Origin: Spizellomyces punctatus DAOM BR117
Taxonomy: Eukaryota
Assembly (NCBI GenBank): GCA_000182565.2
Contig: KQ257450.1
Direction: 5' to 3' (one strand)
DNA length: 64,000 nt
Part shown: piece after piece, positions 32,163-60,800 of the stretch
How the letters are laid out: each line of letters starts with the position of its first letter
Position numbering within the stretch: position 1 is the stretch's first letter
Position numbers and translations under genes: made by a program
Notes under the pieces: model-generated
The model's input: the letters and a program-made list of their open reading frames with translations, nothing else
Told to the model about the DNA's origin: nothing
Database searches by the model: none

Positions 32163-32235
32163 TAGTGCGGAGCCGATGGGTATTGGCACTAGCACCCGCA
32201 CCAGGGATTGAACCGGCGACAACCAGTTCGGAAAA
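32163..32235 (-). ncRNA. Fanzor omegaRNA scaffold (guide continues into flank about 32148-32162)
   Basis: Minus strand TTTTCCGAACTGGTTGTCGCCGGTTCAATCCCTGGTGCGGGTGCTAGTGCCAATACCCATCGGCTCCGCACTA just 3' of the Fanzor stop; stems GAACTGG/CCGGTTC and GTGCGG/CCGCAC; resembles the SpuFz1 omegaRNA as I recall it; conserved in two other elements here. Confidence 0.88.
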
Positions 32236-32250
32236 GGTAATCTAACTAAT

Positions 32251-34128: not shown

Positions 34129-34180
34129 TGATGATATCTGTGGGAAAAGATGAAAGCCTGGGAAAATGGGCGACGACAAC

Positions 34181-34187
34181 TTATATA
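34181..34187 (-). promoter_or_regulatory. Putative TATA box of Fanzor gene
   Basis: TATATAA about 53 nt upstream of the ATG at 34128. Confidence 0.55.
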
Positions 34188-34619
34188 GGATTTTTTGGAT
34201 CAAACCATAGTTCATGAGTCTAAATCGAGTAAAATTATGATTAAATTGGTTGGAATCTATGTACTAGTGCCAATACCAATCGGCTCCGCACTATGGAAGC
34301 TGTCACAAGATTACGTCAGCTTCAATCTCCGCTGTTCGCCACGGTTCATGCTCCGCGTACTAAAAATAACAACAATATTATGACTATCTTTCGCAGAGCC
34401 CCACGGCTCTGTCAAACGACTAATAGTTTGGCATACTTATGTGGCTTCAAATTACCGGAAGAACTTCGAAACTTCTGTCCGCAAGAGCCTTCCGAGCTTA
34501 TTCATTCTAACAGTGGCTGGTCTCTGCTCCATGAGCAACTTTTGATTCTTGTTCTGAGCCCAGCAATATTTAGGGCGAACGTCTGAGTCTGTCTGTCGTT
34601 AGTGATCCAAAGAGTCTGC

Positions 34620-39418: not shown

Positions 39419-42400
39419 ATGACTACGTGGGCGCAAAGAGCATCTGCTCCAAAAAAGCCAGCGCAAGCGGCTCCGACTGTGAATGTAGGGAAGGGTAAAA
39501 CTGGCGGCGGTGGGAATGTGAAAGCAGGATCTCCCACAACTACAGAAAAGTCTCCTATTGCACCAAGCCCTACCAACACGACACCTACTTCATCCGCCCA
39601 GCCTCCACAACCGGCACCTAGCCCGGTTGCTAACGGACCTGCTAATCCCAACACAACATCCGCTCGTCCAAAATCACCCCAAGGCGCCGTCAAAACACCA
39701 ATGAGCTTTGCAGCTATTTTGGCGAAAGGGAATCTTCCTACACAGAATGCGGCTAGTGCTGGAGGAAATGCCCCACAACAGGCAGCAGCTGAGGGTCAGG
39801 TGAACGGTAAGGCCTCCGTCTCAAAAGGTACATCTCACGTCAATGGCAAGCACACTGGGAAAGAAGCGCGACACAAAGACACTCAATCGAGGTTAGTATA
39901 AGTTGATTGCCATGATCTACCTTTTTCATATTGACCGATTTCGTACGTTTCCTGCTGCTGCAGACAAAGTGCGAGTGGAAACGGAGAGGCTGTACAATTT
40001 AAGGGAGCACTGAAGAATAAGTTGCATAGTGTTAATGCGCCAACGAAGCGGATGTCTTTTGGCTCTTTTGACTCGGAAGAGGCGCCAAATGGTGCACCTG
40101 CAACCGCAAATGCCCCTAGGGCAGCATCACCTCAGGATGCTGCGTCACCGGTAACATCGCCGATCGACGCACCTGCACCGGTTGCTCCCTTGGCGGTGAA
40201 GGATGCTCCCACAGCCACCGCGGCGTCCAGCGCCGCTACACCAACACCAGCTACTGGCACTCCAGTCTCATCTACGGCTCCGACGACGCTTTCTCATCAA
40301 CCCAAACCCGTGAGTATCCGCTGAGGCAAAGAACATGTTGTTTCACAGAGCTCATTTATATATCCTCTATGAATATAGGTATCTGCAGTTGCTGCACGTG
40401 CTGTTCCCGTTCAACCTACCATTCCGCGCACTATGTCTGCTCCCCCGACGATGAAGCAGGGTGGCAAGGGGCCCGCAGTTGGACAAGTGCAAGGACAACC
40501 ATCTGGGACCTCGGTAGCTGGGGAAGTTCAGCACACCGTTCCTGTCACTGGTGTCAGTGCACCGGGACCTGGTCAAGTTTCCCCTGTGACCCCAATGCAG
40601 CAACACGTCTCACAGCCGCACGTTCATCCCGCACATCCGGCAGGTCACCATGCACAAACTCACGCTCCTCACCACCCGCAGTTCCATCAACCAACGGCAC
40701 AACACCATCACCCGCAACATCATCATCAGCAGTTGCACCCCGCTACTCATCAGCAGGCGCACACGTATGCACCTAGACATCAACAACATATGAGACCACC
40801 TGCCATGCCCAACGCTGCGCCATACGTGAAACAGTACAAGCCACATGGTGTGGCGGTGAGTTTCTTGTCACCGTTACTTTCTTATTTGCCCCCCTGATTG
40901 ACATTAATTTTGATTAGCCCAATGCTCACGTGGCGGCAATCTCGCAGCCAGGAGTACCGCATCAAATGTTGGGCCCGACCCCAATCTCGGGGCCGAATCC
41001 TACAGCCATGTACGCGTATGTCCAAGGAGTCCCACAAGTGAGTAGGCTCGCTGACTTGCTGCCTGCTGCTTGCTAATAATTGTATCATTATGCACACCAG
41101 TATTATACGTCGTATTATGACCCACAGATGCCATACACACAATTCACACCCGCATACATGCAGTATCCGCCTCAAATGATACCTCAAGGAGGTATGCCTT
41201 CGACACCGACGGGGCAAAGATTTACCGGACCCAATCATGCACCAACTACACCGACAAGCACTCCTGGAAGTGCTCGCAATAGTAAAGCAAGAGTGCCTGT
41301 TACCATCAAGCGGCCGGACACCGATGAGCCAGTTCAGCTTCCTCAAGCCACAACAGCATCCTCACCTGCACCACGGACAAGTGCTCCAGCCATTCAGCCA
41401 AAGGTTGAAACTCCCAAATCTAAAGTTCGTATTGTGTTGAAGAATCCTGAGACAGGCGAAGAGATCTTGAACATCAAAGGCGAGGAAGCACAGAAGAAGG
41501 AGGATGATGTCGTGACAAAGACTGAGAAGAATGAGGATACCCCGGTAGCTGAAACGAAAGAGACACCGCAACCCGAAGCTCCAACTGCCGTCCTGAAGGA
41601 GGCAGACGAAGCTCTTCCTACCGCGGAAGCGAAGCCGGTAGCGGAAGTCAAGGTTCCAGTTAAGGTAGATACTAAAGAGGCGAAAAAACCAGAGGTTGTT
41701 CAGATACCTAAGCCGGAGACAAAGGAACAACCCAAACCTGTTCCGTCGAAGGAGGTCACGGAGGATGTTTCCGCGGAGCCTGCTAAAGTGACACCGCCAG
41801 CTCCGGTACCCACTACGGCTGCTGAGATTTCTACTGAGAAGACAGATTTGGCACCTTCCCAGGAGGCCAAAGTGGCGCAGGCGAAGGAAGACGTAGAAAA
41901 GGTGCCGGATTCGAAAAAGGATGTAGAAAAGGTTCCGGAATCCAAAAAGGAGGAAAAGATTGAAGCTCCGAAAGAGGAACAGGTGACACTGAAAGAAGCC
42001 GTCTCGGTAGATGAAAGTGCAGTCGCAAAGTCGGAAGTTCCTGAAGCCGCGAAACCAGCAGAACCTGTGGAGCCTGAGCTGGAAGATGGGGAAATTGCGG
42101 AGGATGACGGTGCAAAGGAGTCCGCCCCGAAACCTGAAGCACCAGCGATTGATGGCGCGAAACCAATTGCCACATCCGAAGATGTTCCAACGGACGCTAA
42201 TCTGCGGCGATCTGCCTCACCTCTAATTGATGAGGAGGCTACCAAGCCAGCTGGGTCCAAAGGAGAGCTGCCAAGTAAAATTGACACACGACCAGCCATG
42301 AAGCGCTTAGAGTCTTTCGAAGGTGTCAAGTATCCCAGTACCGTCCCATCGCCTTCCCACGAACCTGGGAAGCCCTTCCGGTATCAAAGGGATTTCCTTC

Positions 42401-45400
42401 TTCAGTTTGCAGAAATTGCCAAAGAAAAGCCGCAGGGCTTGCCGGCGCACTCTGACATTTACGGAGATGATAAGGGGACATCTCCTCGCGGCGATCGTAA
42501 AGACTCGAAAGGTCCTGGTCGTCCTCTCAGTATGTCTCGCCAGGGATCTTCCAGTGATGTCCGCATGGGCCCACCAGGTAAAACAAGCGAGGAAAGATGG
42601 CAGCAAGCGATGGCATCAAAGCACGGCGGTGTTGGCGTACAAGGTGTTATGAGTGGTGTGGCCCCTCCACCTACTGCACGAATGAGCCGTACAGGTTCTG
42701 GCGGCGGTGGACGCATGCCACCCATGATGCGTCAAGGCTCTTTCCGCGACGGCGTACAGTCTGGTAGAGATAGTCGAAGTGGTCGTGGAGGTCGCGATCG
42801 TGGACCACCGCGCCATGCGGCTCCTGAGCCACCAGGCGAACCCGTTGAGCCACTCGTCAAGTCTGAGACTGCTTGGGCGCCTATGTCTGTGAAAAAGTCG
42901 GCCAAGAAGCCCGCCGATGGGGAGGACAAGGAGAAGGCCGAGGAGGAGCTGATATACAGAAAGACAAAGGGTCTCTTGAATAAGCTGACCATTGAGCGCT
43001 TCGATTCCATTTCATCCCAGATTTTGAACATTGGCATGACAAGGGAGAGCATTCTCAAGGGAGTTATTGCCCTTATATTTGAAAAGGCGTTGGATGAGCC
43101 CAACTTCGGGTCCATGTATGCTTCCCTTTGTGCTAGACTGTCGAGCGAGCTACCAAAGGTCCAGAGCTGGATTGATATAGATGCGAAAAACAATACCTTC
43201 AGAAGAGTATTGTTGAATCGGTGTCAGGAAGAATTCGAAAAAGGTGCTAAATGGAGCGAATCAGAGGAGAAGCTCCTCGAACAGCGGCGGGAAGCCCGTA
43301 CCAGATTGGAAGCCATGACTGACGAAGAGAAATTGAAGATCGCTGAGGAGGATTACCAACGCGGCAAAACGAAGCGGCGGGTGCTCGGTAACATCAGGTT
43401 CATTGGTGAGCTTTTCATACAGAGCCTTATTACCGAGAAAATCATGCACCAGTGCATACAACAACTTCTTAAGAACGTGACGGACCCAGAAGAGGAAGAT
43501 GTAGAGTCGCTGTGCAAGTTGCTCACTACCATTGGTGCACGCATGGACCACTCCAAGGCTAAGGGTCACTTTGAGGCATACTTTGCGCGTATCGAGGAAT
43601 TGACCAAGAACGCCAAGTTGTCTGCTCGTATCCGATTCATGCTGCTTGATCTGATAGACCTTCGCAAGGAGGGCTGGAAAGCACGAAACGCGCCCACTGG
43701 GCCGAAGACTATTGCTGAAATCCGGGCTGAAGCTGAACGTAAACAAGCGGAGGAAGCACAAAAGATTCAAGAGCGAAACCGAAGCTCAGGGGGAGCCCGG
43801 GGATTGCCAACACGGGATCAGCAGTTCCGGGATCGTCGGGGAAGTGGTCGGGGCAGTCAAGACGGACGTACCGGAGGTGTGGCCCAAGTTAGCGGGGACG
43901 GATGGGTCACACAGGGATCAACGCGAGGCATGCCTCAGGCATCGCGGCAAGTTGAGACCTTTGCCAACTTTGGTCAGATCAAAAAGGCTGACCGTACGTC
44001 GATTACGTTTGGTCCGGGTGGTGGTATGGGCTTTGGACAAGGTGCGAAGGGATGGGGTGCCAAGAAGACCGAGGCGAAAGAGGCTGGAGCGCCCTTGAGC
44101 AGATCAAGCAGTGCTGGAGAGGGTGGCCTTGCTGCTCCCAACATGTTCAGCGTGTTGGAGGGTATGGACCGAAAGAAGTCTGTTGATGAGGGACGCAAAC
44201 CTACTGCGCCTAAAGCGGTGACGCCAAGCAAGGACGAAGAGCAGCCCAAGGAAGAGGAGGTCAAGAGATTGACAAAGGGTCAGGCCAGTGCAAAGCTTGA
44301 CGGAATCATTGAGGAATGGTTCACCCTTTTGGACGTGAACGTAAGTTCCACTGGGGGCTTTTATCATGGGAACATTTAGAACTAATGTTCCTGTGTAATT
44401 TATAGGAGGCTTTTCTGTCCCTAAAGGAATTGGGAGCATATGAGTATCACCCGGACTTTGTGGATACCGTCTTGAACAAGAGTTGGGAGAATAAGCCGGA
44501 TGTGATCAAAAAGGCTGTGAAACTTTTGCTCAAGCTCCTGGACGAGGGCCTTGTCGCCAATGAGGATTTGAAAGACATGTAAGTGTTTTCACCGATTTGT
44601 AGTACCGTATCTTGTGGCAGCCACTGACACGGATTGTGGCCTACAGCCTAGCTCCCCACATCGAGGTCATTGATGATTTGGCAATAGATGTGCCAGACCA
44701 TTACAAAAATGCTGGTCATCTATTGGGCCGCCTTGTGGCTTCTGATTTCATAAATCTGCAAACCGTCCTTGAGCTATCCGCTCCTCTCCTCTCAATATCA
44801 TCCATGAAACCCCCCGGCGCGCGGCTGTTGGCTGAGACACTCAAAGATATCAAATCTTTGGATGGCGATAACGCCCTAGTTGATATCGTCACAAAGGACG
44901 CTGTCGATCTCAAAGAATGGTGGCCAAAGGAAAAGCGTACTGATGAGATTCTGGCAGATTGGCTGGATGCGAATGGGCTTTTCATTTTGGCCCCGGAGCT
45001 TGAAACATTGAAGGGGTTAAAATGGAGATTAGGAAAGGATAATGTGGAATCTGTGGCGGCTTGGTTGAAGGTAAACAAAGCAGTACATTGACCTGCTCAT
45101 TTGAAATGGTAAATTTAACGAGTGGATGTTTCGTAATTGTAGGAGCCGAGCAATGATAAAGTGCGCGCGTCGCCGGAATTCGTGCGAATCTTGACAATAG
45201 GTGTTTTGTCACACATTGCATCGCAAACAGTATTCGCGAACGGCCCCAACAAACCAGTAGAACCCACTCCCGATTCCGTGCAAAAGCAAAAGGAGATGTT
45301 GACATCGCTCAAGCCGTTGTTTGATCCATACGTGGATGGGTCTAAGAAAGTGGATGTATTGTTTGCTATTCAAGCGTACTGTGGCAATATTGGATTCCCT

Positions 45401-45613
45401 ACTGGTTGGTTGAAGCTTTATATTGCCAGCAACTCGTTTTTCAAACTTCTAACGATGCCAAAAATCGTTGCAGAACTCTTACCCAACATGTTCCGTCATT
45501 TCCGAGAAGTCGGCATTGTAGACAAGAGCGCATTTGAAGCATGGAAACAGGACACATTGCGAGAGCAGAGTACAAAGAAGGAGGCCCTTGCCGCCGTCGG
45601 AGACATGTCCTAA
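39419..45613 (+). CDS. eIF4G: Translation initiation factor eIF4G (multi-exon)
   Basis: eIF4E-binding YQRDFLL; MIF4G KGLLNKLT..IFEKALDEPNFGSMYA..LGNIRFIGELF..RIRFMLLDLIDLR; GPKTIAEI; MA3 and W2-like C-terminal exons. Confidence 0.95.
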
Positions 45614-46073
45614 AATTGAACGGATCAACACATAAACAAGGGGGGAATCACGTTTTTTGCATATATAATAGTTGGGTTTTGTTTATCTTTCCATTTCTGC
45701 CGGATTTCTTTTTCTGCACGGATGGATGGCATCAAGGTGTGCAGAAGGCATCGCATATGGCTGTTTCTTTTTTTCTTTTGTTTTTTGTTTGAGGAGATCT
45801 AGTTAATATATCCATTTGGAAAATCGTTTCATCAAATTGTGCTCGTTTCGTTCTACCTTGTTTTTATGGTATATGGATTATTCCAATACTGCGAGTCCCA
45901 TTGCACCTTTGTGATGACGATGTGCGGTTTTGCGGGGAAGCGCTGTTTTACAGTCGAAAAGAATTCTTTGTCATTGTTTCAAATGTTTGCCGTTGAAGAT
46001 GTGCAGCAGCATTAGATGCAAGAGCTGGAATACTTTATACGCAGCCCAGTATTGTGTAATTGTTCATGTTGTG

Positions 46074-46146
46074 TAGTGTAGAGGTGACAGAAAATGGCAC
46101 TAGCTACTACACCAGGGAATAAACCGGCGACAACCGGTTTGGAAAA
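46074..46146 (-). ncRNA. omegaRNA scaffold variant, copy 1
   Basis: TTTTCCAAACCGGTTGTCGCCGGTTTATTCCCTGGTGTAGTAGCTAGTGCCATTTTCTGTCACCTCTACACTA; stems AAACCGG/CCGGTTT and GTGTAG/CTACAC. Confidence 0.8.
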
Positions 46147-46198
46147 GCTAACTAAGCTACTACTAGGCAATTATACACGCAATACGTAACGGTTGGTT

Positions 46199-46551
46199 CT
46201 AACCGGATAATTGCCCTCCACCACACGCGGTCCCTACTAGGCCTTGATCCAGAACTCTTGATGGCATTGAAGCCAGACTCTTGCATCCAGGAGCGAATCG
46301 ACTGGGCAGCGTCACAAGCCAGAGGATGTTCAGTGACAAGGCTTGGAGACTAGAGAAAAAAACTGCATGTCAGAAGATGACCCGATGACAAGAAATGCAA
46401 GAAATGCCATCGATACATACCAACCAAGCTCAACTAATGTGGCAGCATAATAGTAGGTTTTGTTATCAGATCCGATTGGTTGCCACTGGTTCTGGTCACG
46501 GTTGCTGTCGGGCGGTCGAGGTCCTCGACACCACCACATCGGCGTTCTCAT
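46199..46551 (-). CDS. Putative spliced 93-aa cargo ORF, copy 1 (exons 46551-46421, 46349-46199)
   Basis: accATG, intron GTATGT..CTGAC..TTTCTCTAG (71 nt), frame kept in both copies; coding status unproven. Confidence 0.45.
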
Positions 46552-46669
46552 GGTTGACCGAGTCGCGATGAGGTTGCAATGTGGGTCGCAATGAGAGTTG
46601 TGCAGATGCAGATGCTTTGAGAGTCGAGGATGGGTAAAGAGGAAAGAGGGAAGAGACAGAAGGCTCCCC

Positions 46670-46676
46670 TTTTATA
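46670..46676 (-). promoter_or_regulatory. Putative TATA box in element copy 1
   Basis: TATAAAA followed by a pyrimidine-rich tract, conserved in copy 2 (54322-54328). Confidence 0.55.
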
Positions 46677-47064
46677 GACCTTTGGCATGCGCCTCACCGC
46701 AGTTTAAAAAAAAAACATTAGCATGCCACACCAATCTGAGCGATAGATGGGGGTTCTCATTATGCGATATGATTAACCGGATTCATCCGGATAATAATGA
46801 GTCCTAGTGCCATTTTCAATCGCCTCCACACTATGTGATGTGCTTATGTAATCCAGCCCATCCAATTTCAATTCTGCCTTTTACGACACGCATGGTTTGC
46901 TTTTGTGGTGAACTCACTACGACTTTATCCGCCTCTCCAATTCCCAACGTGATCAGCTGTGTGGGGAGTCAAACCACATGCTAAAAGGGCCATAGCAACC
47001 AAAGTGTGTGCAGTGTGTGTGTGTGTCGATACCGTTCTTTTTTTTCCTTTAAAATGGAGAGATC

Positions 47065-47095
47065 ATTCATCATCATCATCATCATCTTCATCATC
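47065..47095. repeat. (CAT)n microsatellite, with TG repeats nearby
   Basis: About 10 CAT-like units; (TG)n near 47003-47026. Confidence 0.9.
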
Positions 47096-47758
47096 AGCTG
47101 TGTTTGGGGTCTTGACTTGCTTTTCCTTTTGCCTTTAAAGTAATTACATACATTATCATATGGCTCCCCCGCTTTCTCTTTTGTACACACACATTCAAAA
47201 AGGAAACACACACTCATTCCCCCGTTCAGCTTTTTTTGGTGGTTGGGGGCGGTTCAAACTTAACAACGGCTACTTTGGAGAGAGAGACTGCGCCCCACCG
47301 CCCAAACTAGAGGCGATTTTAGGCTGACTGTTCAAACGGACCCTCGTTGAACCGCTTTCTCGTCGTCGTCGTTTTCCTTTCATCTTTGAGACGCGACGGC
47401 AATTCACCTGTTCTATTTAGGTACGTTATCCACACATGGGATTTAGCTTGGAAGGAGGCTTCTACCTATTGGAAAAGATGGAATTTACACGACGGGGGCG
47501 TGTATTTTATCTTTTACATTGGCGTCCCCAAAGGACCAAAATATCCATTAGGAAAAAAAACAAAAACGAGAGCGGAAAACCGCGTAGGAAAAGCTATATA
47601 CGACACTTTTACTGACACACTTACACACACACATAACTTTTACACATACTTACATTGCTCTTTTCTTACTCTTTGACATTGACTTGCACAATGCAGACAA
47701 ACCAACTGTACCCATTGTCGAACGACCATCCCTCATCTTCCAAGTGTGCAATTGCGCC

Positions 47759-50700
47759 ATGTCGTTCCCACGCATGGGCACTGGTCATGGCGACATGCCC
47801 GAGGAAGAACATAATTTCCAGAAAGCAATACGAATAAAAATACCTTTCAACAAGGAAAACCCAGAGGCAAACGTCTTCGACTATGCGCAGCTGGTTGCGG
47901 CTCTGCATGGCGGTGCATCGTCCTCCTCGGGCGGAGACATGCCTAAAACCGACACTGGTTCAGCTGGTTCTGATAGCGAGGAGGATGGAGAAGACGAGAA
48001 CGGAGTAAGTTAAAAATTACCACTGTCTTATAGTTCCTTGGTCGTTTAAGCAACTGGGTAGTAATATGTCTATCAATATCTTTCAGCAGCAACCTCGCAA
48101 AAAGAAGAGTGCTGCAAAAAAGATACAAGAGGACTACGATTTTGAGGACGACTTTATCGATGATAGCGATCTCTTTTACAACGAGGTCGGATATGTCCCT
48201 CCTAGCGAATGGAATTATGGTTTCTTTGCATGGCGAGGACCAGTGGAGAATTTCTTCGAAGAGTAGTACGTATTGTCTCGACAAGTATATATGCACTTAA
48301 TAGACCGTCATCTCATGATCTTCTAGCCAAACAGACTTATTCGACAGAGATGCACCAGCTACTGCTGCAAAGCAGAAGGGCAAAAAGAAGGCGACCGCTG
48401 CATCTGCGGAGAAGAAGACAGTAAACGGAGCCGACAAAAAAGCCAAAGGCACTGGCGAGACCAGCCGAAAACGATCCAAAAAGGCAGCGGTTACCGCGCC
48501 AGCCAGTAGTGCGCCAACCTCACCAAAGGTGAAGCGCACTAACATTTCGCCTCCAGAGTCAGCAAAGCTGGGGATTAGTATAGCATCACCCGAGCCCGCA
48601 AAGGATACAGTCACTTCTACGCCTGAAGGCGCACGGGCTGGCGGCACCACCATCACTTCAATCCCGAACTCTTCCGCTCCAGAACGGCGTGGCCCATCAC
48701 AACCTGCAGATTCTGCTACTACTGGAGCACCGGACAACCATCCACTTGGACCATACATCATTGTCCCAACAAGGACCGATAGCGAATTGTCAGAGGACGA
48801 TATGCCACTCGCTGATTACGCCCGGATAAAAACCACAAAAGACGAACCACCGGTTCCACAACGAAAGCCCAGCCAACAAACAAAAAAACGAGACAGAAAG
48901 GAGGATAAACACACGACTTTGGGGCCGGCTGCAATTGCGGACGTAGCAGTGCGACATGCATTTTCAGAACCCTCCAAGAAGAAGCAGAAAAAGAACAGAG
49001 AAAAAACTGCCCAAGAAGGGCTACTTGCTGCGCCTCCATTAGCTATCTCTGCATCTCTTCTTGAGGTTTCTATGGGTCTATCGGATCCTTCCGGATCGAA
49101 AAAATCCAGTTCAAAGAGCGAGAAAAAATCTTCGTCAAAAAAGAGTTCCAAATCCAAGCGATCAGAGGTTCGTATATTTTGGTAGTTGGAGTACAGCGTC
49201 CCGACGAGGCTTTGGGTTGTATACTGATTGAAGCATTATAGACCGGGTTCCCCCGTAAAGTTGAGCAATTGTTGCAACATCTTGAAGAGAAGGCATACCT
49301 GTTACGTGAGTACATTTATGGCTGTACTCTCTAGCTCATGTCTTCCCAATATTGATCGTGACCATTGTTGTATTAGAACCACCGGCCCATGAGCCTCTCA
49401 CGGGTGAACTGAGAGATTGCCTCCACCAAGCCGCCCTTACTGCGTCGAATAACAGCTGCTTGAATGCCTCATTCTTTGCGCGAGTTGGAGCCTTTTTGCC
49501 GTACCCTGAATATTATCTAAGAGTAGGTTGCAGTATAACGTTGAGGTCGCTCAACTTCCAGCCAACTGTCATATTCTGTCATCCAGAAAATCATCGGCAT
49601 ACACGTTATACCCAAAAAGCTGGAAAGAATGCAGCCAGCCATAAAGCAGATGTATGATCATTTCCGCGCGCTCATCAAGGAAACTTTAACGCAAAATCCA
49701 ATCGCAACCCAACCCTCTACATCGTCTGCTGCCTCGCCAGAGGGGAACGACGGCAGTTCTAAATTCCCTTGGACCGAAGATCTGAGGACGCTGTTTTGGA
49801 ATTTGTTGTGCAGTGAATGGGAGATGGCCGAGTTGGATAACGAGTATCAGTGAGTACTGTCATCTTTGTCTCTATATGTGATCTCCATACTCAGCATTGC
49901 GTTAACAGCATACTTACCGATACTAAACCCGAATTCAATGAGAGCGCTGTGCGCAAAGCTGTTTATGGAAAGGTCCGACTCGCATATGATGATTCTTTCG
50001 CTTGTGGTTTGTTCTCACTATCCCTGTTTCTATTATTAAGGTATTAAGTTTTTGGCCCGAGGGAATGATGACGGTCGAGACGCTTTCCCGTACATATAGT
50101 CATATGAAAAGAAAGCTGGAACGACGAGCAGCCAGTGGTTACGGCGGCGGCAGATACCACGGTGCCAAACCCGATCCTTTCAAGAATAACAAAAGATTGA
50201 ACCCTCGCAAGTCCGCTCCGCCGATACTGGAGGGTGGTCCGCTGGGGCGAGATGAGGACGATTCACAAAAAGTGTCCGTGAACCTTGTCTCTTCAGTATC
50301 AGCTATGACTCCGGCAAAATCTGATGGTGGAGTATCTTCGCCGCTGTCGTCTCCTTACGCAATGGGTGGTAGTCAAACACCAGAAGCTGGACCCAGTTCC
50401 ACCCCTTCCAATGAGATTCCCCCCCGACCCCCCATACCTCCCAAACTCATATCCAAGGTTCCTGCTGCGGGCCATTTTACTCCAGACGGGTGGAAAGTGG
50501 AAAAGGACAATGTGAAACGCAAAGGATCTTTTGAGCCCCCAAATTTTGAGCATATCCCTCTGGACAAGAAACAGAAAATCTCGATCATGACATCAACAAC
50601 TGAGTTCGCGACGCCGACTCCATCAGGTTCAGCCGGAACTGCTGGAGGAAGTGGTTCGCCAGGACCAATAGGAACCACACGGAGGGCCTCCGACGTCAAA

Positions 50701-50832
50701 ATTCAAGTTATCATCCCTGTTGAGAGCCACGATTCTGTGACAGAAATAGCATCGCCTGCGCGGAAAACGTCTGATGCTACGAGAGAGAATTTGGGTGGGA
50801 GGGCAATGTCGGTTGCAGAGTTGATTGGATAG
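47759..50832 (+). CDS. HIR-complex subunit HPC2/ubinuclein-like protein (multi-exon)
   Basis: HUN-like motif EDYDFEDDFIDDSDL...GFFAWRGP; N-terminal IRIKIPF..FDYAQL; helical middle region FPWTEDLR...WPEGMMT. Confidence 0.75.
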
Positions 50833-50986
50833 GATAGCCATTATCACCGATGTCTTTCTTTGCATCAGTCTTTTTTTCGCTGTACATTTCTTTTTTAACG
50901 GAAATTTTTGATATACGCAGTACGATTGTCCAATGCCAGAGTCAGGAGGGTCAACATCAAACAATTTAATTAACGTTTTACTACAA

Positions 50987-51652
50987 TTAGACGATCCCAG
51001 CCTCTACAAAATCCTCTTTCCCAAACCTATGTCCTAGTCTCACTCTTTGTACGCCATGTTCCACGTAATCTCGTACTCCACCCGGCACAACGTACCCGCC
51101 AACCTCCATAACGTCCTCTCGATCAAAGTAATCCTCGTCAGCTAGCACAAACCTTCCCGCATGTGCCATTTTTGAGTTACACCGACATTGATCCCTTCCA
51201 TATGCATCCTCGTCCACCTGAAAGTGAACCCAGGTAACATTCGCCAGCCACCTATCCACAATCGATCCAGAGTTGATCTCAGGTTCCTCTTCCAAGGCCG
51301 GCGAAGGACATGACCCGCCTGTTAACGTTGTACTCTCGTCACCGTCCACGTCACTGTCGCCAGTAACACTGCTTGACCTTGTTGATATACTTGTGCGAGG
51401 TGGTGAGGCGATTCTGCCTACGATAGACGCTCTGGGTGGGGAATGGTGGGCGAGTGCTGCGAGACCGAGATGTTCGTCCTGATGTGTTGTGAAGGGAGTG
51501 AAGCTGTTTGTATTTGCTGTTGTTGGTTTGCTTGTTGCTGGGACGGTATGGAATGCTGTGGGATGTTCAAAGTAGTCTTCGTCACAGGACCAGCGATATG
51601 ATAGGATGGTAGCCATGGTCGCCCTTGTTCGTAGCGCAGAAAGAGCCCACAA
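50987..51652 (-). CDS. Hypothetical protein
   Basis: 221-codon ORF with repeated DEDYF motif; true start is probably the internal ATG at 51616. Confidence 0.4.
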   Translation of the reverse strand: MWALSALRTRATMATILSYRWSCDEDYFEHPTAFHTVPATSKPTTANTNSFTPFTTHQDEHLGLAALAHHSPPRASIVGRIASPPRTSISTRSSSVTGDSDVDGDESTTLTGGSCPSPALEEEPEINSGSIVDRWLANVTWVHFQVDEDAYGRDQCRCNSKMAHAGRFVLADEDYFDREDVMEVGGYVVPGGVRDYVEHGVQRVRLGHRFGKEDFVEAGIV

Positions 51653-51834
51653 CCTTGCAAGTCAAATGAGGTGGTCAAAACGAACAAAGGCAAATACAAC
51701 AACGGGTGCGCGCAGCAGTGTGATCCTTGATGTGGCGCAAGCTGACAATTGCGCCATCTTACGCGAATCAGGTGGCCAACAGACCCAAGCAAACGACAGC
51801 AAGTTTGGAAACTGGTCAGTACAAGTAGCCAAAG

Positions 51835-53289
51835 ATGGCAGCAACAACCGATTCTTACGCGTCTGACCCATCCACTACCTACGCCCTCCCACTGCGCAAG
51901 GAGTTTCAGCGGGGACAGGCTCTATACCAGAAGCTCGAAAACTCGGAGCTTGCGTCGTCAGATCCCGCCTTCCAAGTAATACAAGCTGCGGACATTTTCT
52001 TTGGCCCACATTGTATGTCTCAACGCCGTGCTTCACGCAGGAAGATGTGACGGAAGGGATCAATTCTCTCTTGCGCTGCGCGGCGCTCGTAGAAACACTT
52101 GGAGTTTTTAGTTCAAATGAACTTTTGGAAGATATCAACACGGCTGATCTACGGTAGGTCAAGCAACATAGATCACCCACGTCAACAATCATTGATCTTG
52201 TCAAGCAGGTATCTTTTAGTCAATGCTTATCTTGCGGTATTGATTTCGAAACGCATGGGGCAGGATCGCCTCGAAGTATTGCAAACTGCACAGGTATAAA
52301 ATTCTTGCAGAATCTTCCTTTAGTCGAAAGTGCATACTTATCAACAAGTCGATGCATACACAGCATCATTATGAACGATTTCTGGCGGCATGTGAACAAC
52401 ATGAGATACTTCGGGCAGATGACAAAAAGTTCTTGGAAACCCAAATGAAGGGCGGTATTGCGGACCCCGAAAGGAAAAGAATGGAAAAAATTGCACGATA
52501 TAAGCGGGAGAAAGCCACAAAGGAAAAGCTAACGGTACTTTCCAAGCTCGTCTACTGTTCCGAGTCTGAGTAACTTGACGTTTGCGTATCATGATTCAGG
52601 AGCTCCATGAACAGCTTTCCTATCAGGCCAAGGCAACCCCTAATGAAGATGAAGATGTCGATGAGGAATTAGACCGCGAAATCATTTTAACAACTATCGA
52701 CTTGTTTATACAACGAACGGCTGAAAACCTTAAGCTCATTCAGGATGAGCGCAAATTGTTGGAGATGGCAAAAGCAAAGGGGACACTTCGAGGACCCGAT
52801 TCAAGAGATCAAACCACGATCATTGAAGGAACCCCCCCACCACGGATGAACCACCAAGGACCGTTATTAGCCTCAGATGGGAAGGTGCGCATTGTGACTG
52901 CTCAACTTTGGACATTTACCCAACACTGACTTTTTGTCGCTCAGATCCTTCGACCGTTTGTAATCACATCCAAACGTGAAGCTCTCCGTCAGCAAGTATT
53001 CCGGCCCGGTCATAATTTGCCGACAATGACAGTAGAAGAATATATTGACAAGGAAATCGAGCGCGGGAACTTTCTCAGTGGTGGAGGGTAAGGGAGTATA
53101 TATATCTCTTGTTCCACTACCTCGCTAACTATACCTCCTTTATCTATATCCAGCAAAGAACCAGAAACAAAAATAGCTGACGATAATGACCATGAAGCTC
53201 TTGATGCTGAGACATATAAAGCCCGACAATGGGATGAGTTCAAAGATGATACTCCCCGCGGATGGGGAAATCGGTATAATAAGGGTTAA
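51835..53289 (+). CDS. TAP42: TAP42/IGBP1 (alpha4) PP2A regulator (multi-exon)
   Basis: VFSSNELLEDINTADL-RYLL, RMEKIARYK, RPFVITSKRE..VFRPGHNLPTMTVEEY, KARQWDEFKDDTPRGWGN. Confidence 0.93.
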
Positions 53290-53612
53290 TAGTCGGAGTT
53301 GACTAGCAAGTAGACTAGCTTCCGTCTCTCGATGTGGATGCGTGTTACCTCCAGTATAGAACGACAGAGTGATGAGATTATTCCTGTGGTTCCAACGATG
53401 CGACACCTAATAAACGCGTCTTAGGCTTCAAAGTTTATCCGAAGGAAAACTACAAGCGCTATTTGTTGATACTTTGTCATCCGATAAAGCCCTACCTGGT
53501 GCATGACTTGAATATTATAGAGGGACCATGCAATGGGGGTGGCTTACACATTCAATTGGTTTTTCAATCTGGTTTTTCATCGAGAATCACATGTGGTTTG
53601 TGGTTTATCAAC

Positions 53613-53686
53613 GCCTCCTTGGCTCAGTTGGTTAGAGCGTCTGCCTAGTAAGCAGAAGGTCCCGCGTTCGAATCGCGGAGGAGGCA
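53613..53686 (+). tRNA. tRNA-Thr(AGT)
   Basis: Acceptor stem GCCTCCT/AGGAGGC, D arm GCTC..GAGC, anticodon arm TCTGC-CTAGTAA-GCAGA, T arm GTTCGAATC; TTTT about 23 nt downstream. Confidence 0.96.
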
Positions 53687-53751
53687 TCAACTGGTTTAGA
53701 GTTATTCATTTTACTCCCGGTGCCAACATCAACAGGCGGCGTGTTCTTTGC

Positions 53752-53824
53752 TAGTGTAGAGGTGACAGGAACTGGCACTAGCTACTACACCAGGGAATAA
53801 ACCGGCGACAACAGGTTCGGAAAA
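53752..53824 (-). ncRNA. omegaRNA scaffold variant, copy 2
   Basis: TTTTCCGAACCTGTTGTCGCCGGTTTATTCCCTGGTGTAGTAGCTAGTGCCAGTTCCTGTCACCTCTACACTA. Confidence 0.78.
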
Positions 53825-54483
53825 GCTAACTAAGCTACTACTAGGCAATTATACACGCAATACGTAACGGTTGGTTCTAACCGGATAATTGCCCACCACC
53901 ACACGCGGTCCCTACTAGGCCTTGATCTGGAACTCTTGATGGCATTGAAGCCCGACTCTTGCATCCAGGAGCGAATCGACTGGGCAGCGTCACAAGCCAG
54001 AGGATGTTCAGTGACAAGACTTGGAGACTATACATGCATGTTAGTGACAGAATAACATGAAAAGAGATGATGCCATTGGTACATACCAACCAAGCTCAAC
54101 TAATGTGGCAGCATAATAGTAGTTTTTGTTATCGGATCCGATTGGTTGCCACTGGTTCTGATCACTGTTGCTGTCGGGCGGTCGAGGTCCTCGACACCAC
54201 CACATCGGCGTTCTCATGGTTGACCGAGTCGCGATGAGGTTGTGTGGGTCGCAATGAGCGTTGCACAGATGCTTGCGAGTCGAGGGATAAAGAGGAAACA
54301 GGGAAGAGGGAGCAGGTCCCCTTTTATAGACCTTTGGCATGCGCCTCACTGCAGTTTAAAAAAAAAACATTAGCATGCCACACCAATCTGAGCGATAGAT
54401 GGGGGTTCTGATTATGCGATATGATTAACCGGATTAATCCGGATAATAATGAGTCCTAGTGCCATTTTCAATCACCTCCACAC
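53754..54483 (-). mobile_element. Nuclease-less Fanzor-related TIR element, copy 2 (730 bp; ghost-type)
   Basis: TIRs at 53754-53781 and 54456-54483, TA flanks at 53752-53 and 54484-85, CATA at the left junction; colinear with 46076-46831. Confidence 0.92.
53877..54217 (-). CDS. Putative spliced 93-aa cargo ORF, copy 2 (exons 54217-54087, 54027-53877)
   Basis: accATG, intron GTATGT..CACTAAC..TATAG (59 nt); exon lengths 131 and 151 identical to copy 1. Confidence 0.45.
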
Positions 54484-54870
54484 TATGTATGGATGGTTGT
54501 TGGCATTCAGGCCATGTATATTTCTTACTCTGTACAAATACAAAAATATCGCAAAGAGAGTGCAAAATGGGATAGGCATACTAAACATAACCCGGACGAC
54601 CCCGCCAGATATTCTTGTTTTTTTTTGCGTTTTCTTCGCCTTATGTCCAAAGGCCAACACATTCATCTCATATGTAAAAAAGTACGACATCTACCTCCGA
54701 CAATGGCCTATGTTACATCCCAGAATCATATGCACGATGATCGTCGTCTAAACTCATAACCGCATGTGATGTTTTTGCTACAGATGTTCATCATACAGCA
54801 TATTGAGCAAATCAGATACAAATATATACAGAACCCCGGAATCCTCACCTCACACCTTTCCAATTGAAGT

Positions 54871-57800
54871 CTATGACGAGCCACTGGGGCTGTACGCAGC
54901 GCCATTTGGCTTGGATGTACTGCTACCAGTGCCCGTTGAAGGGTTTGCACCAGCTGGAGCATACCCCCCGCCAGCGACCGGTCCTGGAGAGGTTGGGCTG
55001 AATGTTGGGGATGTGGGGGAATATTGTGGAGACGTCGGCGAGTATTGCGGCGACGTCGGGCTATATTGAGGTGATGTCGGAGAGTATTGAGGCGAGGTTG
55101 GCGAATACTGCGGTGAAGTGGGCGAGTATTGCGGTGATGTGGGGCTGTAGCTCGGACTCGTAGGTGAGTACATGGGAGACGTTGGCGAGTACTGAGGTGA
55201 AGTGGGACTGTAATTGGGCGACGTTGGGGAATACGTCGGGCTCGTTGGACTGTATTGCGGCGATGTTGGCGAATACGTTGGACTGGTAGGAGAGTAACTA
55301 GGGCTTGTAGGGCTGTAGCTTGGAGACGTTGGCGAGTAACTCGGCGACGTAGGACTATAACTCGGGCTAGTCGGCGAATAACTAGGACTTGTCGGACTGT
55401 AACTGGGGCTAGTTGGCGAATAGCTGGGTGACGTCGGCGAGTAGCTCGGGCTTGTCGGACTATAACTGGGCGATGTAGGGCTATAGCTCGGACTGGTCGG
55501 TGAGTAACTCGGACTCGTTGGGCTGTAGCTCGGACTTGTCGGACTGTAGCTCGGACTGGTGGGCGAGAAGCTTGGCGACGTCGGCGAGTAACCAGGTGAC
55601 GATGGACTGTACCCAGGACTCTGCGGACTGTACGATGGCGAGAATCTAGGTCCACCGGGTCCGCTCCAAGGCTTGCCACCATCGGAATCCACCCCGTAAG
55701 GTGAGAAAACCACAGGTCCAAGTGGGGAATAGCCACCCGCTGGAGTCATTGGCATTGGACTTCGATCCAAGTACGGAGTATGCGCCGGACTCATAAAGCC
55801 TGCCTGGAAACCAATATCCATCGCATGATGGTCTCGCATAGGGTCCATGATGGAGGGCGCCTTTTTCAACATGTCCTCGTCCAAGATAACGTCAACATAT
55901 CCAGTTCCCATAGGTGCCAACTGTCCAAGAATGATATTCTCCGACACACCCTTACAGTCATCAACTTCACCCATGCCAGCTGCTTCAATGAGTAACTCGA
56001 CCGTCTCTTCGAATGAAGATCTGGCCAACGCTCCAGCTTCCGTTCGGTTGATACCATGGCGTGTGATAGCCATCAAGTGACCACGTTGCGTCATAATATC
56101 GCAAAGCAGCGCCAAATGCCGATAGTTGACGTAGGAACCGTCGAACTCGATGACCTTACGCACTTCTTTCAACACTGCCGCACGAGTCGCTTCGATGCCA
56201 AACACATCGTTGATCTCAACAGTGAAGTTGGAGTACGTTCTTTGGGCATCAACTCCATCATGAGCGAGCACGGCAGCCAATGCTGTCCCGTCCGTCTCAA
56301 GGAACCATTCTTTCTCTCCGTTTGCATTAAGTCGTCCGTCGTGATCATAGGTAGGCCGGTTGAATTCAGAAATGAAAGCTCGTTGGATACCAGGGACACC
56401 AGCCAGAGTAATTTGCGTTAGCATATTCTCTTCAACTTTCTTCAAGAACTGGTCTTCATCCAGTTTGCTATCATCATCCTCCTCCCCCTGTTTTGCCTCG
56501 CTCACGATACGCGCAAGAATGACCAACTCCTCCGCGTTGTCATCAGAACACCAACACTTCAAATCGCCTTGGAACTCATCCATAATACGGGCACAGATGG
56601 CTTCGAGACTCAATCCCTTATCGAGCTTTCGTCTGAAATCCAACTTAATGCGCAACACCCACGGTGAGTATCTGCTGAAATCATCGTCCTCCATGTCACC
56701 ATAAGGCTGCATTATAATACGATCTCCTTCAATGACCGAATTCAGTGGGTCCGGATCGTACCAAATCTCCGTCTCCGCCGTAAGGCTCATCAAAGTGGTA
56801 TGTGGGAGTGTACTTTGAATCCGTTTCGCTCGGTCAACAGACGTACGATAATCTGCATCCAAGAATACAGACACACTTGGGGTCTTTATATTCTTAGCAA
56901 CGTTGATGATTTCCTTCAATCGAGGTACACCTAGCGTCACGTTTTTGGAACTGACACCAGCAAAGTGAAACGTGTTCAAGGTCATCTGCGTTGCTGGCTC
57001 TCCGATGGATTGTGCGGCAAGAACTCCAACCATTTCACCCGGGTTGACGATGCATTGATTGAAGCGAGTGTGGATTTCATTGATTATCCAATCAAAGGCT
57101 TCGGGGTTCAGATGGAACTCTTCGATGACACGTCGGGACGCCAACGTGCTTCGAATAAGGATCTGAAACAAAAGTGTGGCATTCTCTTGCCCTTCTCTAC
57201 TGAGATCATCATTTCCGCGAACGACGATCAGCTTTTGCAAGAGATCCTGAACACTGTCCATAACCTTGACAGGATGCAGGCCCGTGGGTTTATTGCGATC
57301 AACTTTGAAGGCATTCTGCGCATTCCATATCATCCGACGAATATTCAGCGGCAATGGCCATGTAGTGGTACTATTGTCACGGAAAATCTGTTGTCGAAGA
57401 ATGCGGCGGTCTTCCTCAAGCTGTTCAAACTCGGCGTCAAACCGTGCCTGCGCTTCGCTTTTGATCAGCTCTTCGGAAATACGGAAGTCCAGCGTATTCG
57501 GTTTCCATCCATGCGGACCATCAGCGACATCAACCTTGTACTTGCTGCGGAACTGCTGGTCAGATATCTTCATGGTGTCCAGGCTCTGCTTTTCCACCTT
57601 TGCTCCGTCCATGCCGTCTTCTCCGTAACAAAATTGAACAATTTCACCTAATGCATTCCGAACCGTGCCATCATACTGTGCCATCAAATCCTCCAGTGCT
57701 TTCACAAGACGGCGTTGAATATACCCAGTTTCTGCAGTCTTCACGGCCGTGTCGATCAAACCTTCACGTCCACCCATGGCATGGAAGAAAAACTCTTGCG

Positions 57801-60800
57801 GTGTCAGACCCCTCAAGTATGAGTTTTCAACAAAACCTCGACTTTCGGGCGTATGATCGTCCTTTGTAAAGTGCGGCAATGAACGATACTTGAACCCAAA
57901 TGGTATACGCTTTCCTTCAACGTTTTGCTGTCCGACACAAGCTGACATTTGCGAAATGTTGATGTACGATCCTTTGGATCCGGCAACCACCATCTGCTTC
58001 ACATTATTGTATTCTTTGAGAGAGGCCTGAGCGCTCTTACCCGCGTTGTCACGGGCACGATTGAGCTCCTTGTTGACTAAGGACTCGAAACTCTCACGGA
58101 TCGTCATACCAGGCAAACCTTCAAGTTTATCAGATTGAGCTTTCTCAATGATTTTGGTCACCTCCTTCTTCGCATTCGAGATAGTTGAGGTAATCTGATC
58201 AGATGTCGGCCGATCTGCGATGGTGTCACCAATACCAATAGAGAATCCGTTTTGCAGTAGCCAATGGTTAACAACCAATTGAGTCCCATTGAAAAACGCC
58301 TTTGCCGCCTCCGGTCCATGCTCATTCATTGTGACGTGAATGATACCATTCGCAGAACTACCCACCGTCTTCTTACAAAGAATGCCGGTGAGCAACTCCC
58401 CGTTTTCAATCAGGACCTTACAATCACTCGAGCTTCCGTCATCTTTATCAGTTTGCTCATCAAATGCAGAGTGGTATCCAGTGACGTTGATTTTAGGTGG
58501 GATGACCAAACTCATGATTTGCTTTCCAGTCCACAAAGGTACCGGCTTAAGAATGGCCGGCTGAGGAACTGTTCCATCCCAATCCGGTACCCACATCAAA
58601 AGGTTCATGACAAAGTCCCGCCGTAGAAAGGTATCGCGCTTTGTGAATTTACGGATACCACAAAGCGTATCCTGAACGATTCCCATAACAGGTGCGTTTT
58701 TTTGCGGTGATACAATTTGCTTTGGTACCATGCAAAGCTCCATCAGCTCGGCTTTTGTCTCATACGACTGCGGCACGTGTAAGTTCATCTCATCTCCATC
58801 GAAATCGGCGTTATACGGACTTGTTACCGACAGATTCAGACGGAAGGTGGAGTAAGGCATAACCTTTACTCTGTGGCCCATCATACTCATTTTGTGTAGT
58901 GACGGCTGACGGTTGAAAATGACAATATCGTTATCCATCAAATGCCGTTCCACGCGATAGCCGTTTTGAAGATGAATATCTCCACCACGGCGATTATACC
59001 GTAGGTCGATTCGTTGGCCATCATCTTTGATGACGTATTTGGCCCCCCCATGTTCTAAAGGTCCCTTTCGTACCATCTCCTGCAAACGGTGAATATTGTA
59101 CGGCGTGACTGTCTCGGGGAAAGTCAAGTTGCGGGCAATGCTCCGGGGTACCCCAACCTCGTCAATCGAAAGATTGGGGTCACCAGTGATGACAGTACGA
59201 GCTGAGAAATCTACACGTTTCCCCATCAAGTTTCCACGTAAACGACCTTCCTTTCCTTTTAGACGAGCTCGAATGGATTTCAACTAAGACACAAACATGA
59301 GTCAACCACAAAACTGCTCTCGTCGAATGACAAGACGATAATGATCTTACCGGTCGCCCAGACTTTTGTAAAGACGGAGGAAGCCCGGCGATGTCATTAT
59401 CCATGTAAGTGGCGATGTGATACTGCAGTAGCTTTTCAAACTCGTTTATGACATGTGCTGGTGATCCTTCCGTCTCGTGCTTCCGCAGAAAGCTATTTGC
59501 CAGGACGATATCACGCAATTTATGTGTCAAATCATCCTGATTTGTCGCCACACCATCCATGCTGACAGCCGGTCGAACTGCCATCGGTGGAACAGGAAGT
59601 ACAGTGATAATCATCCACTCTGGTCGAGCCCAGTCTGGATTTAACCCCAAGCTCATACAATCATCCTCGCTGATCTTCTGGAAAAGCTGATGGACCTTTT
59701 CCGCCGTCAACGGTTCAGTTTTCGGTTCTTGGCCGCTTTCCTCCTGCATAGAAAGGACACAAGATTAATTATGTTGGGAAAAATATGTGAACAAAGCATG
59801 TCCCTTACCTCATCCTTGGTGGCTTTCCAGTACGTAGCTAGCTGCAACGGCCCCTCTTTTTTGAAAATGGGCTGCCTTCCGCCGCAGCCTCCATGAGTGG
59901 GCTTTGACTTGTAGGGATCCTCCATGTCCATCTAGTTGTCAGGTATACTAGGTGAGTTGTCCCAGACAAATGGCAGATCAATGTCTAGCTTTACCATGTC
60001 ATCATCGTCTGGAGCAGTATCGCTGCCCTCGCACACCATTTTGGTCTTGCAAATCTCCCACACCGCATGAAATCGCCGCTTTTTGTCTTTAATGATCCTT
60101 GCCTGGCGAAACCGCTCATTGCTGTGACCGTGGGNNNNNNNNNNNNNNNNNNNNNNNNNNNNNNNNNNNNNNNNNNNNNNNNNNNNNNNNNNNNNNNNNN
60201 NNNNNNNNNNNNNNNNNNNNNNNNNNNNNNNNNNGAGACTATATTGCAGATTCAGTACCTTTAGCTTGCCGCAATGAAAGCACACGCATTCCAAGATCTT
60301 TTTGATCTTGCTGATGAAGCCTACGCGAAGAACATCAATAGAGAGTCACAAACAGTATGGGCATTGCGACATCCAGGCACAGAGCAGGTTCATGATTTGT
60401 TTTCCCATTGGTGACCTCCATTGACACTCTTGCCATCAACTATCAAGCAAGGCTTACCAGCGTGATACACGGGCTTGGCAAGATCAATGTGGCCAAAGTG
60501 ACCGGGACAATCTGTCATGTTCTCGCCACAGGTAGCACATCTGAAGTTCCTATCAGTGGTTCCTAGCCGTCTATCCAGTAGACCGCCAGTTTTGGGGTTG
60601 TTTTCACTTTCATAAAACTCGGGATGCTCCACTTTGACGACAGACATGGCTTTCTACATTTGTCAATAAAGAGAGGAAGAATCAAAGAGGTTGAGGAAAG
60701 ATATTCACATCGGAAATGGCAACCACAAAGTGCAAAAAGTATTGAAAGAAGGTGATAGAGACGGATATATAGCTCCACCAAGAATTCTGAACGAAAACAC

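Follow-up and report, generated by a model that had tools for sequence, protein, structure and literature searches.

Gene-less Spu-1 elements of Spizellomyces punctatus: right-end omega-RNA scaffolds of a probably working fold, and upstream flanks that differ with the right-end cassette

Positions 46074-46147 (minus strand) of the window, the whole 64,000-nt stretch of intron-containing fungal DNA analysed here, form the right-end omega-RNA scaffold of a gene-less relative of SpuFz1-type elements, a kind of element that has already been described. That a ghost scaffold folds like the canonical RNA and is active is likewise published and not new. The segment is probably a working RNA fold rather than a dead remnant. 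Its best explanation, which we consider quite probable, is a non-autonomous Spu-1 ghost scaffold that is loaded in trans and kept by selfish selection on propagation. Better support than the stem-2 pairs highlighted by the initial annotation comes from stem 1 compared over about 180 copies, from the bias of G.U over A.C on the transcript strand, and from an upstream flank that depends on the right-end cassette.

The Fanzor locus and two ghosts in the window

The following features were annotated in the window:
32163-34293, minus strand: Spu-1 Fanzor element, 2131 bp, with 30-nt TIRs and CA upstream
32163-32236, minus strand: omega-RNA scaffold of the Fanzor element, canonical type (alignment and fold)
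32251-34128, minus strand: Fanzor1 ORF, 625 aa from the MPPKKK start (whole ORF 32251-34215)
46074-46833, minus strand: Ghost Spu-1 element 1, 760 bp, without Fanzor gene
46074-46147, minus strand: omega-RNA scaffold of ghost 1, 74 nt, the final two bases being the terminal TA
46121-46140, minus strand: stem-loop 1 of ghost 1, 7 bp with loop TTGTCG, the protein-contacting element according to PMC10432273 and PMC11423790
46107-46114, minus strand: 5' arm of stem 2 of ghost 1, partner of 46074-46081, containing the covarying bases 46109 and 46108
46074-46103, minus strand: right TIR of ghost 1, 30 nt, doubling as the 3' part of stem 2
46059-46073, minus strand: predicted guide of ghost 1, 15 nt of host flank (length from PMC10432273)
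46804-46835, minus strand: left TIR of ghost 1, preceded by CA, which with the TA completes CATA, the SpuFz1 TAM (PMC10432273)
53752-54485, minus strand: Ghost Spu-1 element 2, 734 bp, with CA upstream
53752-53825, minus strand: omega-RNA scaffold of ghost 2, with a private mismatch in stem 1

The Fanzor1 ORF matched chain P of PDB 8gkh (SpuFz1 of Spizellomyces punctatus) with 1209.7 bits and is that of a SpuFz1 paralogue, with all three RuvC acidic residues (D-E-D) and the zinc finger present; in Pfam, neither this protein nor SPu-2 nor the N-terminal part of SPu-3 had a match above the cut-off. The ghosts are 97% identical to each other, so the window records one event and not two, and their right end is common to both and to the Fanzor element. 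Both have related 30-nt inverted repeats, a body without Fanzor ORF and CA upstream of the left repeat, as in the Ghost Spu-1 elements of PMC10432273, with which they also have in common a 75-nt right-end scaffold and an altered stem 2. Ghost 1 shows no difference from these elements, which the accessible text of that paper treats as one class with CA upstream, and by eye its scaffold has the letters of the published gst85.

The accessible text of PMC10432273 reports 42 Fanzor loci, 134 ghosts, the CATA TAM, a cryo-EM structure and a fold prediction for ghosts in which stem 2 is changed. The canonical scaffold, a stem-loop 1 followed by a stem 2, is bound by SpuFz1 and targets its cutting to sites beside CATA, and four ghost scaffolds gave editing with SpuFz1 in human cells; scaffolds with the stem GTGTAG/CTACAC supported such editing, two active ones sharing these stem-2 pairs (PMC10432273). 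By analogy with those other scaffolds of the same stem-2 type, the scaffold of ghost 1 is predicted to bind and guide SpuFz1. It resembles the canonical SpuFz1 omega-RNA (8gkh; PMC10432273, PMC11423790) in the 7-bp stem-loop 1, the 6-nt linker, a stem 2 closing on the terminal TA and a guide derived from the flank, but differs in the pairs 40-70 and 41-69, which are U-A and A-U, in a re-registered distal stem 2 and in having no protein gene in cis.

The initial annotation had seen the stem GTGCGG/CCGCAC of the Fanzor locus change to GTGTAG/CTACAC in both ghosts, and the minus-strand alignment bears this out: the adjacent pairs C-G and G-C become U-A and A-U (46109/46079 and 46108/46080 in ghost 1), corresponding to C40-G70 and G41-C69 in the published numbering. 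These pairs lie at the start of a region, C40-G70, that makes no protein contact and is trimmable in human cells (PMC10432273). According to the portions available of two further papers, the region past stem-loop 1 may be unconstrained (PMC11423790) and the untrimmed scaffold was up to 1.9-fold better in some settings (PMC13434818). The change was inherited from one event, in which two neighbouring positions underwent transitions (CG to TA) on each arm, and the stem-2 form is split by family, one form being shared by 38 of 41 Fanzor-type ends and the other by 83 of 113 ghost ends. Equally correct was the observation that the ghost right TIR differs from its own left TIR at base 7, yielding an A-U pair, and the two ends differ in this way almost throughout (A in 71/71 right ends, G in 68/71 left ends).

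For stem 1, the described change from GAACTGG/CCGGTTC to AAACCGG/CCGGTTT applies to ghost 1 only, since ghost 2 reads GAACCTG/CCGGTTT, with one G.U pair and one U-C mismatch. Genome-wide, the AAACCGG form occurs in six of 184 parsed copies, and the commonest state at that pair is G.U (113/184). Four motifs named as invariant are identical in the three window copies but not throughout the genome, where the loop TTGTCG is found in 159 of 184 parsed copies and CTAGTGCCA is not present in the third end type (class C, below). The conclusion drawn at the time, that the RNA fold works and the ghosts are not dead, probably points in the right direction and is in print (PMC10432273), but the argument was weak because the stem-2 change is one inherited event, lies in the trimmable region and is accompanied by covariation counts that do not exceed those of shuffles; it was over-read from one event.

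A tRNA-Thr(AGT) at 53613-53686 (plus strand) lies 65 bases away from ghost 2, at its right end, and faces it; it was the sole Rfam match over 45500-55000, and tRNAs were present in five of 93 loci scanned. The 60 bases upstream of the scaffold (46148-46207 and equivalents) diverge by 2.1%, like the scaffold, and resemble the region after the stop codon of SPu-2; they may hold a promoter or processing signal. A spliced host gene occupies 41080-45613 (plus strand), its intron 45404-45472 being skipped in two runs, and presumably encodes the translation factor eIF4G. A long ORF at 54871-59283 (minus strand), with 21-nt heptad repeats at its end, has what we take to be a resemblance to the largest subunit of RNA polymerase II.

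Fold and covariation across the genome-wide scaffold set

Copies were collected by pattern and fetched piecewise, and all counts are lower bounds. Pattern searches of the genome gave 155 core matches, of which 40 were of Fanzor type at equal stringency. The 198 right ends gathered comprise 41 Fanzor-type ends, 113 ghost ends (class A), 42 candidates for a third type (class C) and two SPu-2 ends. Stem 1 was parsed in 184 of these, leaving 14 unparsed, and pairs were counted on 97 distinct scaffolds, one rearranged and one long-linker copy having been left out of 99.

All three window scaffolds fold better than their shuffles (z -3.5, -3.3 and -2.6), and RNAalifold recovers both helices, predicting the 7-bp stem-loop 1 followed by stem 2 up to the guide junction. 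Over the 97 scaffolds, 97.5% of 1451 stem cells are paired, against 92.5 ± 0.3% in shuffles and 31-50% with slid partners, and none of 500 shuffles reaches the observed cell-level pairing measures. Both-sided change occurs in this set at six of 15 pairs, three in stem 1 and three in stem 2. The relatedness-robust count of both-sided pairs is not above shuffles (6 vs 5.3; 197/500), nor is that of further pair types (17 vs 16.4; 230/500). The words 'covariation' and 'compensatory' do not occur in the accessible text of PMC10432273, and no covariation analysis of ghost scaffolds was found in the literature searched, with most subscription papers outside it.

At stem-1 pair 6, G-C is present in 135 copies, A-U in 38, G.U in six and A-C in four; pair 5 is C-G in 154, U.G in 16 and U-A in 11, and pair 2 is A-U in 169 and G-C in ten. 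Nearly all stem changes are transitions via G.U. On the transcript strand G.U cells outnumber A.C cells by 211 to 15, 97 of the former belonging to one invariant pair. With one exception (three copies), every stem-1 haplotype found in at least two copies is fully paired. Stem-2 pair 8 is unpaired in 15 of 93 scored rows; ten class-A copies break it, and seven class-C copies hold just seven stem-2 pairs. The pair counts of the two stems thus describe a constrained core and a loose distal stem; selection would be strong on stem 1 and the first five to seven pairs of stem 2 and loose further out. In class C the TIR is a different one, and 17 copies have a 10-bp stem 2 that matches it (z -5.9 in the one copy folded). 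Both stems are retained in all three right-end types.

Metagenome scans with the SPu-3 protein and the stem-loop-1 pattern gave no match, and hence no cross-species covariation. On a tree of the ghost bodies the stem-1 states are unclustered (10 changes vs 11.2 when shuffled); as the bodies are mosaic, independent origins of stem-1 states cannot be counted on it. SPu-2-type and Fanzor-type stem-1 blocks are found in ghost bodies, which shows block exchange.

Right-end cassettes, upstream flanks and SPu-3

Left-end searches recovered a sister class (class B, 27 matches) that combines the ghost left TIR and body with a different right end. By eye, this right end is the whole 3' end of SPu-3 after the stop codon (PMC3627910 Additional file 2), and class-B right ends also take in the final codons of SPu-3, the junction lying at any of several points. 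The 27 matches consist of one SPu-3 gene (L101, L193), one degenerate copy and 25 ghosts; 21 ghosts had a usable left end, L066, L102, L103 and L107 being dropped. The class-B ghosts scored have the following right ends:
L061, L062, L064, L065, L069, L071, L073-L080, L082, L084, L086, L089, L104-L106

The class-A flank sample comprised 71 complete ghosts of 113, one rearranged locus having been left out. All 71 have A immediately before the left TA, and 65 of them have CA·TA (the dot preceding the left TA), the SpuFz1 TAM. In class B this base is T in 20 of 21, with all 21 flanks differing from one another (class A vs class B, Fisher p 2.5e-19). The left parts of class-A and class-B ghosts show no fixed difference, and class-A ghosts with the class-B body type have A in 9/9 (p 7e-7). 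On the body tree, B is intermixed with A/C (9 changes vs 9.3 in shuffles, at least five of them forced). The third left-end type stands at CA·TA in six of nine matches, two of the rest being damaged and one chance-like, and four third-type CA·TA left ends stand opposite class-C ends.

The first downstream base is A or T in 56 of 71 class-A and 20 of 21 class-B ghosts; with A/T downstream in both classes, a symmetric transposase would give an upstream mix, yet each class shows one state. The right TIR moves with the cassette, so targeting by a transposase that is set by the right end is inseparable here from the cassette itself. The SPu-3 cassette is nearly invariant, with one shared and 27 private alleles over 111 bases, compared with 57 and 62 over 220 columns of the body, which fits selection or one recent donor. 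Read from sequence, these flanks suggest that Fanzor cutting in trans may filter insertion sites. On a wider reading, for and against which we find the scales level, the ghost body would be a module able to take the right-end RNA cassette of either of two orthogonal Fanzors of the genome, the nuclease in trans deciding where insertions survive: SpuFz1-type at CA·TA and SPu-3 at (A/C/T)T·TA. The literature searched (most subscription papers outside it, and the supplements of PMC10432273 and PMC3627910 in part) reports no cassette-dependent flank.

A single SPu-3 Fanzor1 gene was found (L193:437-1801 and L101:1-820), and it stands at CA·TA. The expectation of a gene copy at T·TA thus failed, and the flank of this one copy does not equal that of its ghosts (T·TA in 20/21). 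L107, considered as a second gene copy, was rejected and is a ghost. The gene has the motifs VDPG, IDEF and NRD. Close to the zinc finger, two in-frame stops lie inside a 63-nt GT..AG stretch (L101:461-523) that is probably an intron, the frame being open if it is spliced. The N-terminal part had no match in PDB, and the right-end RNA folds no better than shuffles (z -0.4). The SPu-3 element is like the 25 ghost-body elements in their common 3' end, and is unlike the window elements in lying outside the window and having no UUGUCG stem-loop. Within the SPu-3 cassette, about as far from the end as in the other types, there is a possible decayed stem-loop 1, whose bases are used otherwise in the predicted fold. 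No test of SPu-2 or SPu-3 was found in the literature, most subscription papers lying outside the search.

If the cassette-swap reading is true, SPu-3, a Fanzor that probably contains an intron, would have a TAM of about HTTA (TTA-type) and an RNA of ~145 nt. The swap points to a second compact pair of Fanzor and RNA, and would constitute genome-scale natural evidence on the host role of Fanzor, that is, TAM-dependent retention or homing of gene-less elements. Whether other elements are served by Fanzor in trans is a question that the accessible text of PMC10432273 does not settle; ghosts that share a left end and body but differ in RNA cassette and flank turn it into one bench test, of the SPu-3 TAM.

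Several right ends are unusual in composition. The SPu-2 Fanzor copies (L181:167-1840 and L182) have stem-loop 1 with loop TTTACG and are without the Spu-1 TIR; the SPu-2 stem-loop-1 block is also present in about nine ghosts. The third right-end type (L198-L237, L068, L087) has a TIR that starts TAGTGTATTGG, a SpuFz1-type stem-loop 1 and a stem 2 of its own, in some cases with an additional linker hairpin (L203, L207, L218), and also forms the left end of SPu-3. In L237 a class-C right end is joined to the Spu-1 coding-end context, another cassette swap. At G000:C10:2720-4940 a third-type left end and a class-C-type right end stand 2.2 kb apart, possibly marking another Fanzor-bearing or autonomous element. 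L094:75-140 is a mini element of ~55 nt in which a Fanzor-type left end is fused to a ghost right end, and L129 is a head-to-head rearranged ghost with two copies of stem-loop 1.

Proposed mechanism, level of selection and alternative explanations

In the mechanism that we propose, the right end of a ghost would be transcribed into flanking DNA, giving scaffold plus guide RNA, and Fanzor protein made in trans would load this RNA. The loaded complex would cut the empty site, made up of CATA and the guide sequence, which excision would have re-created or which a sister or homologous chromosome would carry, and repair from the occupied copy would restore or spread the ghost. Lineages with a loadable fold at TAM sites would out-propagate others. 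Selection would be selfish and act on propagation, the stem-2 changes being one ancestral event that is compatible with the mechanism and not proof of it. For Spu-1, binding, the TAM and ghost activity are published, while we infer locus expression, excision, host cutting and repair. Assembled contigs of four of 24 runs span the ghost body, and one of them carries the compensated form of stem 1; strand, ends, level and locus are not readable from contigs. No empty site or scaffold-specific transcript was found among the assembled contigs of these four runs, in which strand and ends cannot be seen.

For bacterial TnpB, empty-site cutting with retention of the element has been shown (10.1101/2023.03.14.532601). 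As described in the available parts of the sources, IS200/IS605 TnpB with PATE is similar to the Spu-1 ghosts in having RNA-only elements served in trans and a nuclease that cuts the empty site (10.1101/2023.03.14.532601), and IS607 TnpB in that TAM-bearing insertions are proposed to be selected after promiscuous insertion (10.1101/2023.08.09.552727). These systems are bacterial, have no TIRs and use known transposases, whereas the Spu-1 ghosts are eukaryotic TIR elements with a putative TA duplication and no known transposase, none being known for these elements according to the accessible text of PMC10432273. TAMs sometimes match insertion sites (PMC10530073, in the part available).

Alleles were compared between 44 non-TIR scaffold bases and 319 body bases of 52 class-A ghosts picked via the left end. 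Shared and private alleles stand at 4:17 in the scaffold and 146:74 in the body (Fisher p 6e-5), a difference that is inflated by linkage among body alleles. Private mutations per site amount to 0.39 in the scaffold and 0.23 in the body, so that the scaffold is depleted of inherited changes but not of private ones, as when single insertions decay; selection acts on the ability of a lineage to spread and not on each inserted copy. Gene conversion may be a part-cause of the scaffold homogeneity, the upstream 60 bases being equally conserved (2.1% divergence).

The paired changes might alternatively stem from template switching, or from conversion of whole ends followed by a recent burst, and not from selection on the fold, which we judge unlikely. 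Template switching can yield multi-base compensations (10.1101/2021.04.15.439925, as far as available), the stem-2 changes sit side by side, the left end of SPu-3 shares a hairpin with the third right-end type, and the stem-1 states are scattered on the body tree like shuffles, indicating that segments move as blocks. Switching makes Watson-Crick pairs, however, and G.U is abundant and strand-biased; recurrent stem-1 haplotypes are fully paired but for one (three copies), and the cassette-dependent flank would be left unexplained. Among mutational processes, transitions affect 13 of 33 CpG sites and 44 of the 192 remaining G/C sites (p 0.053), yet CpG observed/expected is 0.78-0.94; CpG decay as the sole cause is weak on these figures and was rejected. 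A selfish advantage of propagation would also differ from service to the host, under which the ghosts would form a guide library with each copy maintained for the use of its guide to the fungus. Such a library would be in keeping with ~170 copies with different guides and with the repertoire idea raised in PMC10432273, but private scaffold mutations (0.39/site) are not fewer than those of the body (0.23), ghost 2 has a private stem-1 mismatch and the guides are simply the flanks; we consider it very improbable.

It is also conceivable, if rather improbable, that the hairpins act as DNA, a transposase reading folded single-stranded ends, like IS200/IS605 TnpA, or an end-specific structure, and alone choosing CA·TA or T·TA by the right end. 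The TIR does lie within stem 2, the right TIR and cassette travel together, the bias of G.T over A.C would fit one DNA strand equally well, and a link to single-stranded DNA transposons is raised in PMC10432273. Against this, the cryo-EM structure shows SpuFz1 binding the stem-1 bases in RNA form (PMC10432273), the left ends do not fold (z -0.8), and CA·TA is kept across differing left and right TIR types. In the sources available, it is the left end that determines the IS605 target, and the left ends of the two ghost classes show no fixed difference. We therefore retain loading in trans with selfish selection on propagation as the preferred reading.

By eye count, the 126 'ghost scaffolds' of PMC13434818 Supplementary Data 1 comprise 68 reversed left ends, 37 class-A, 13 class-B and one class-C end and seven others; gst4 and gst3 are the left ends of the window ghosts (46759-46833 and 54411-54485). 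Of the five low-activity entries named in that paper, three are left ends and two are class-B ends in truncated form, and the presence of reversed left ends and SPu-3-type ends in the set would explain these five examples.
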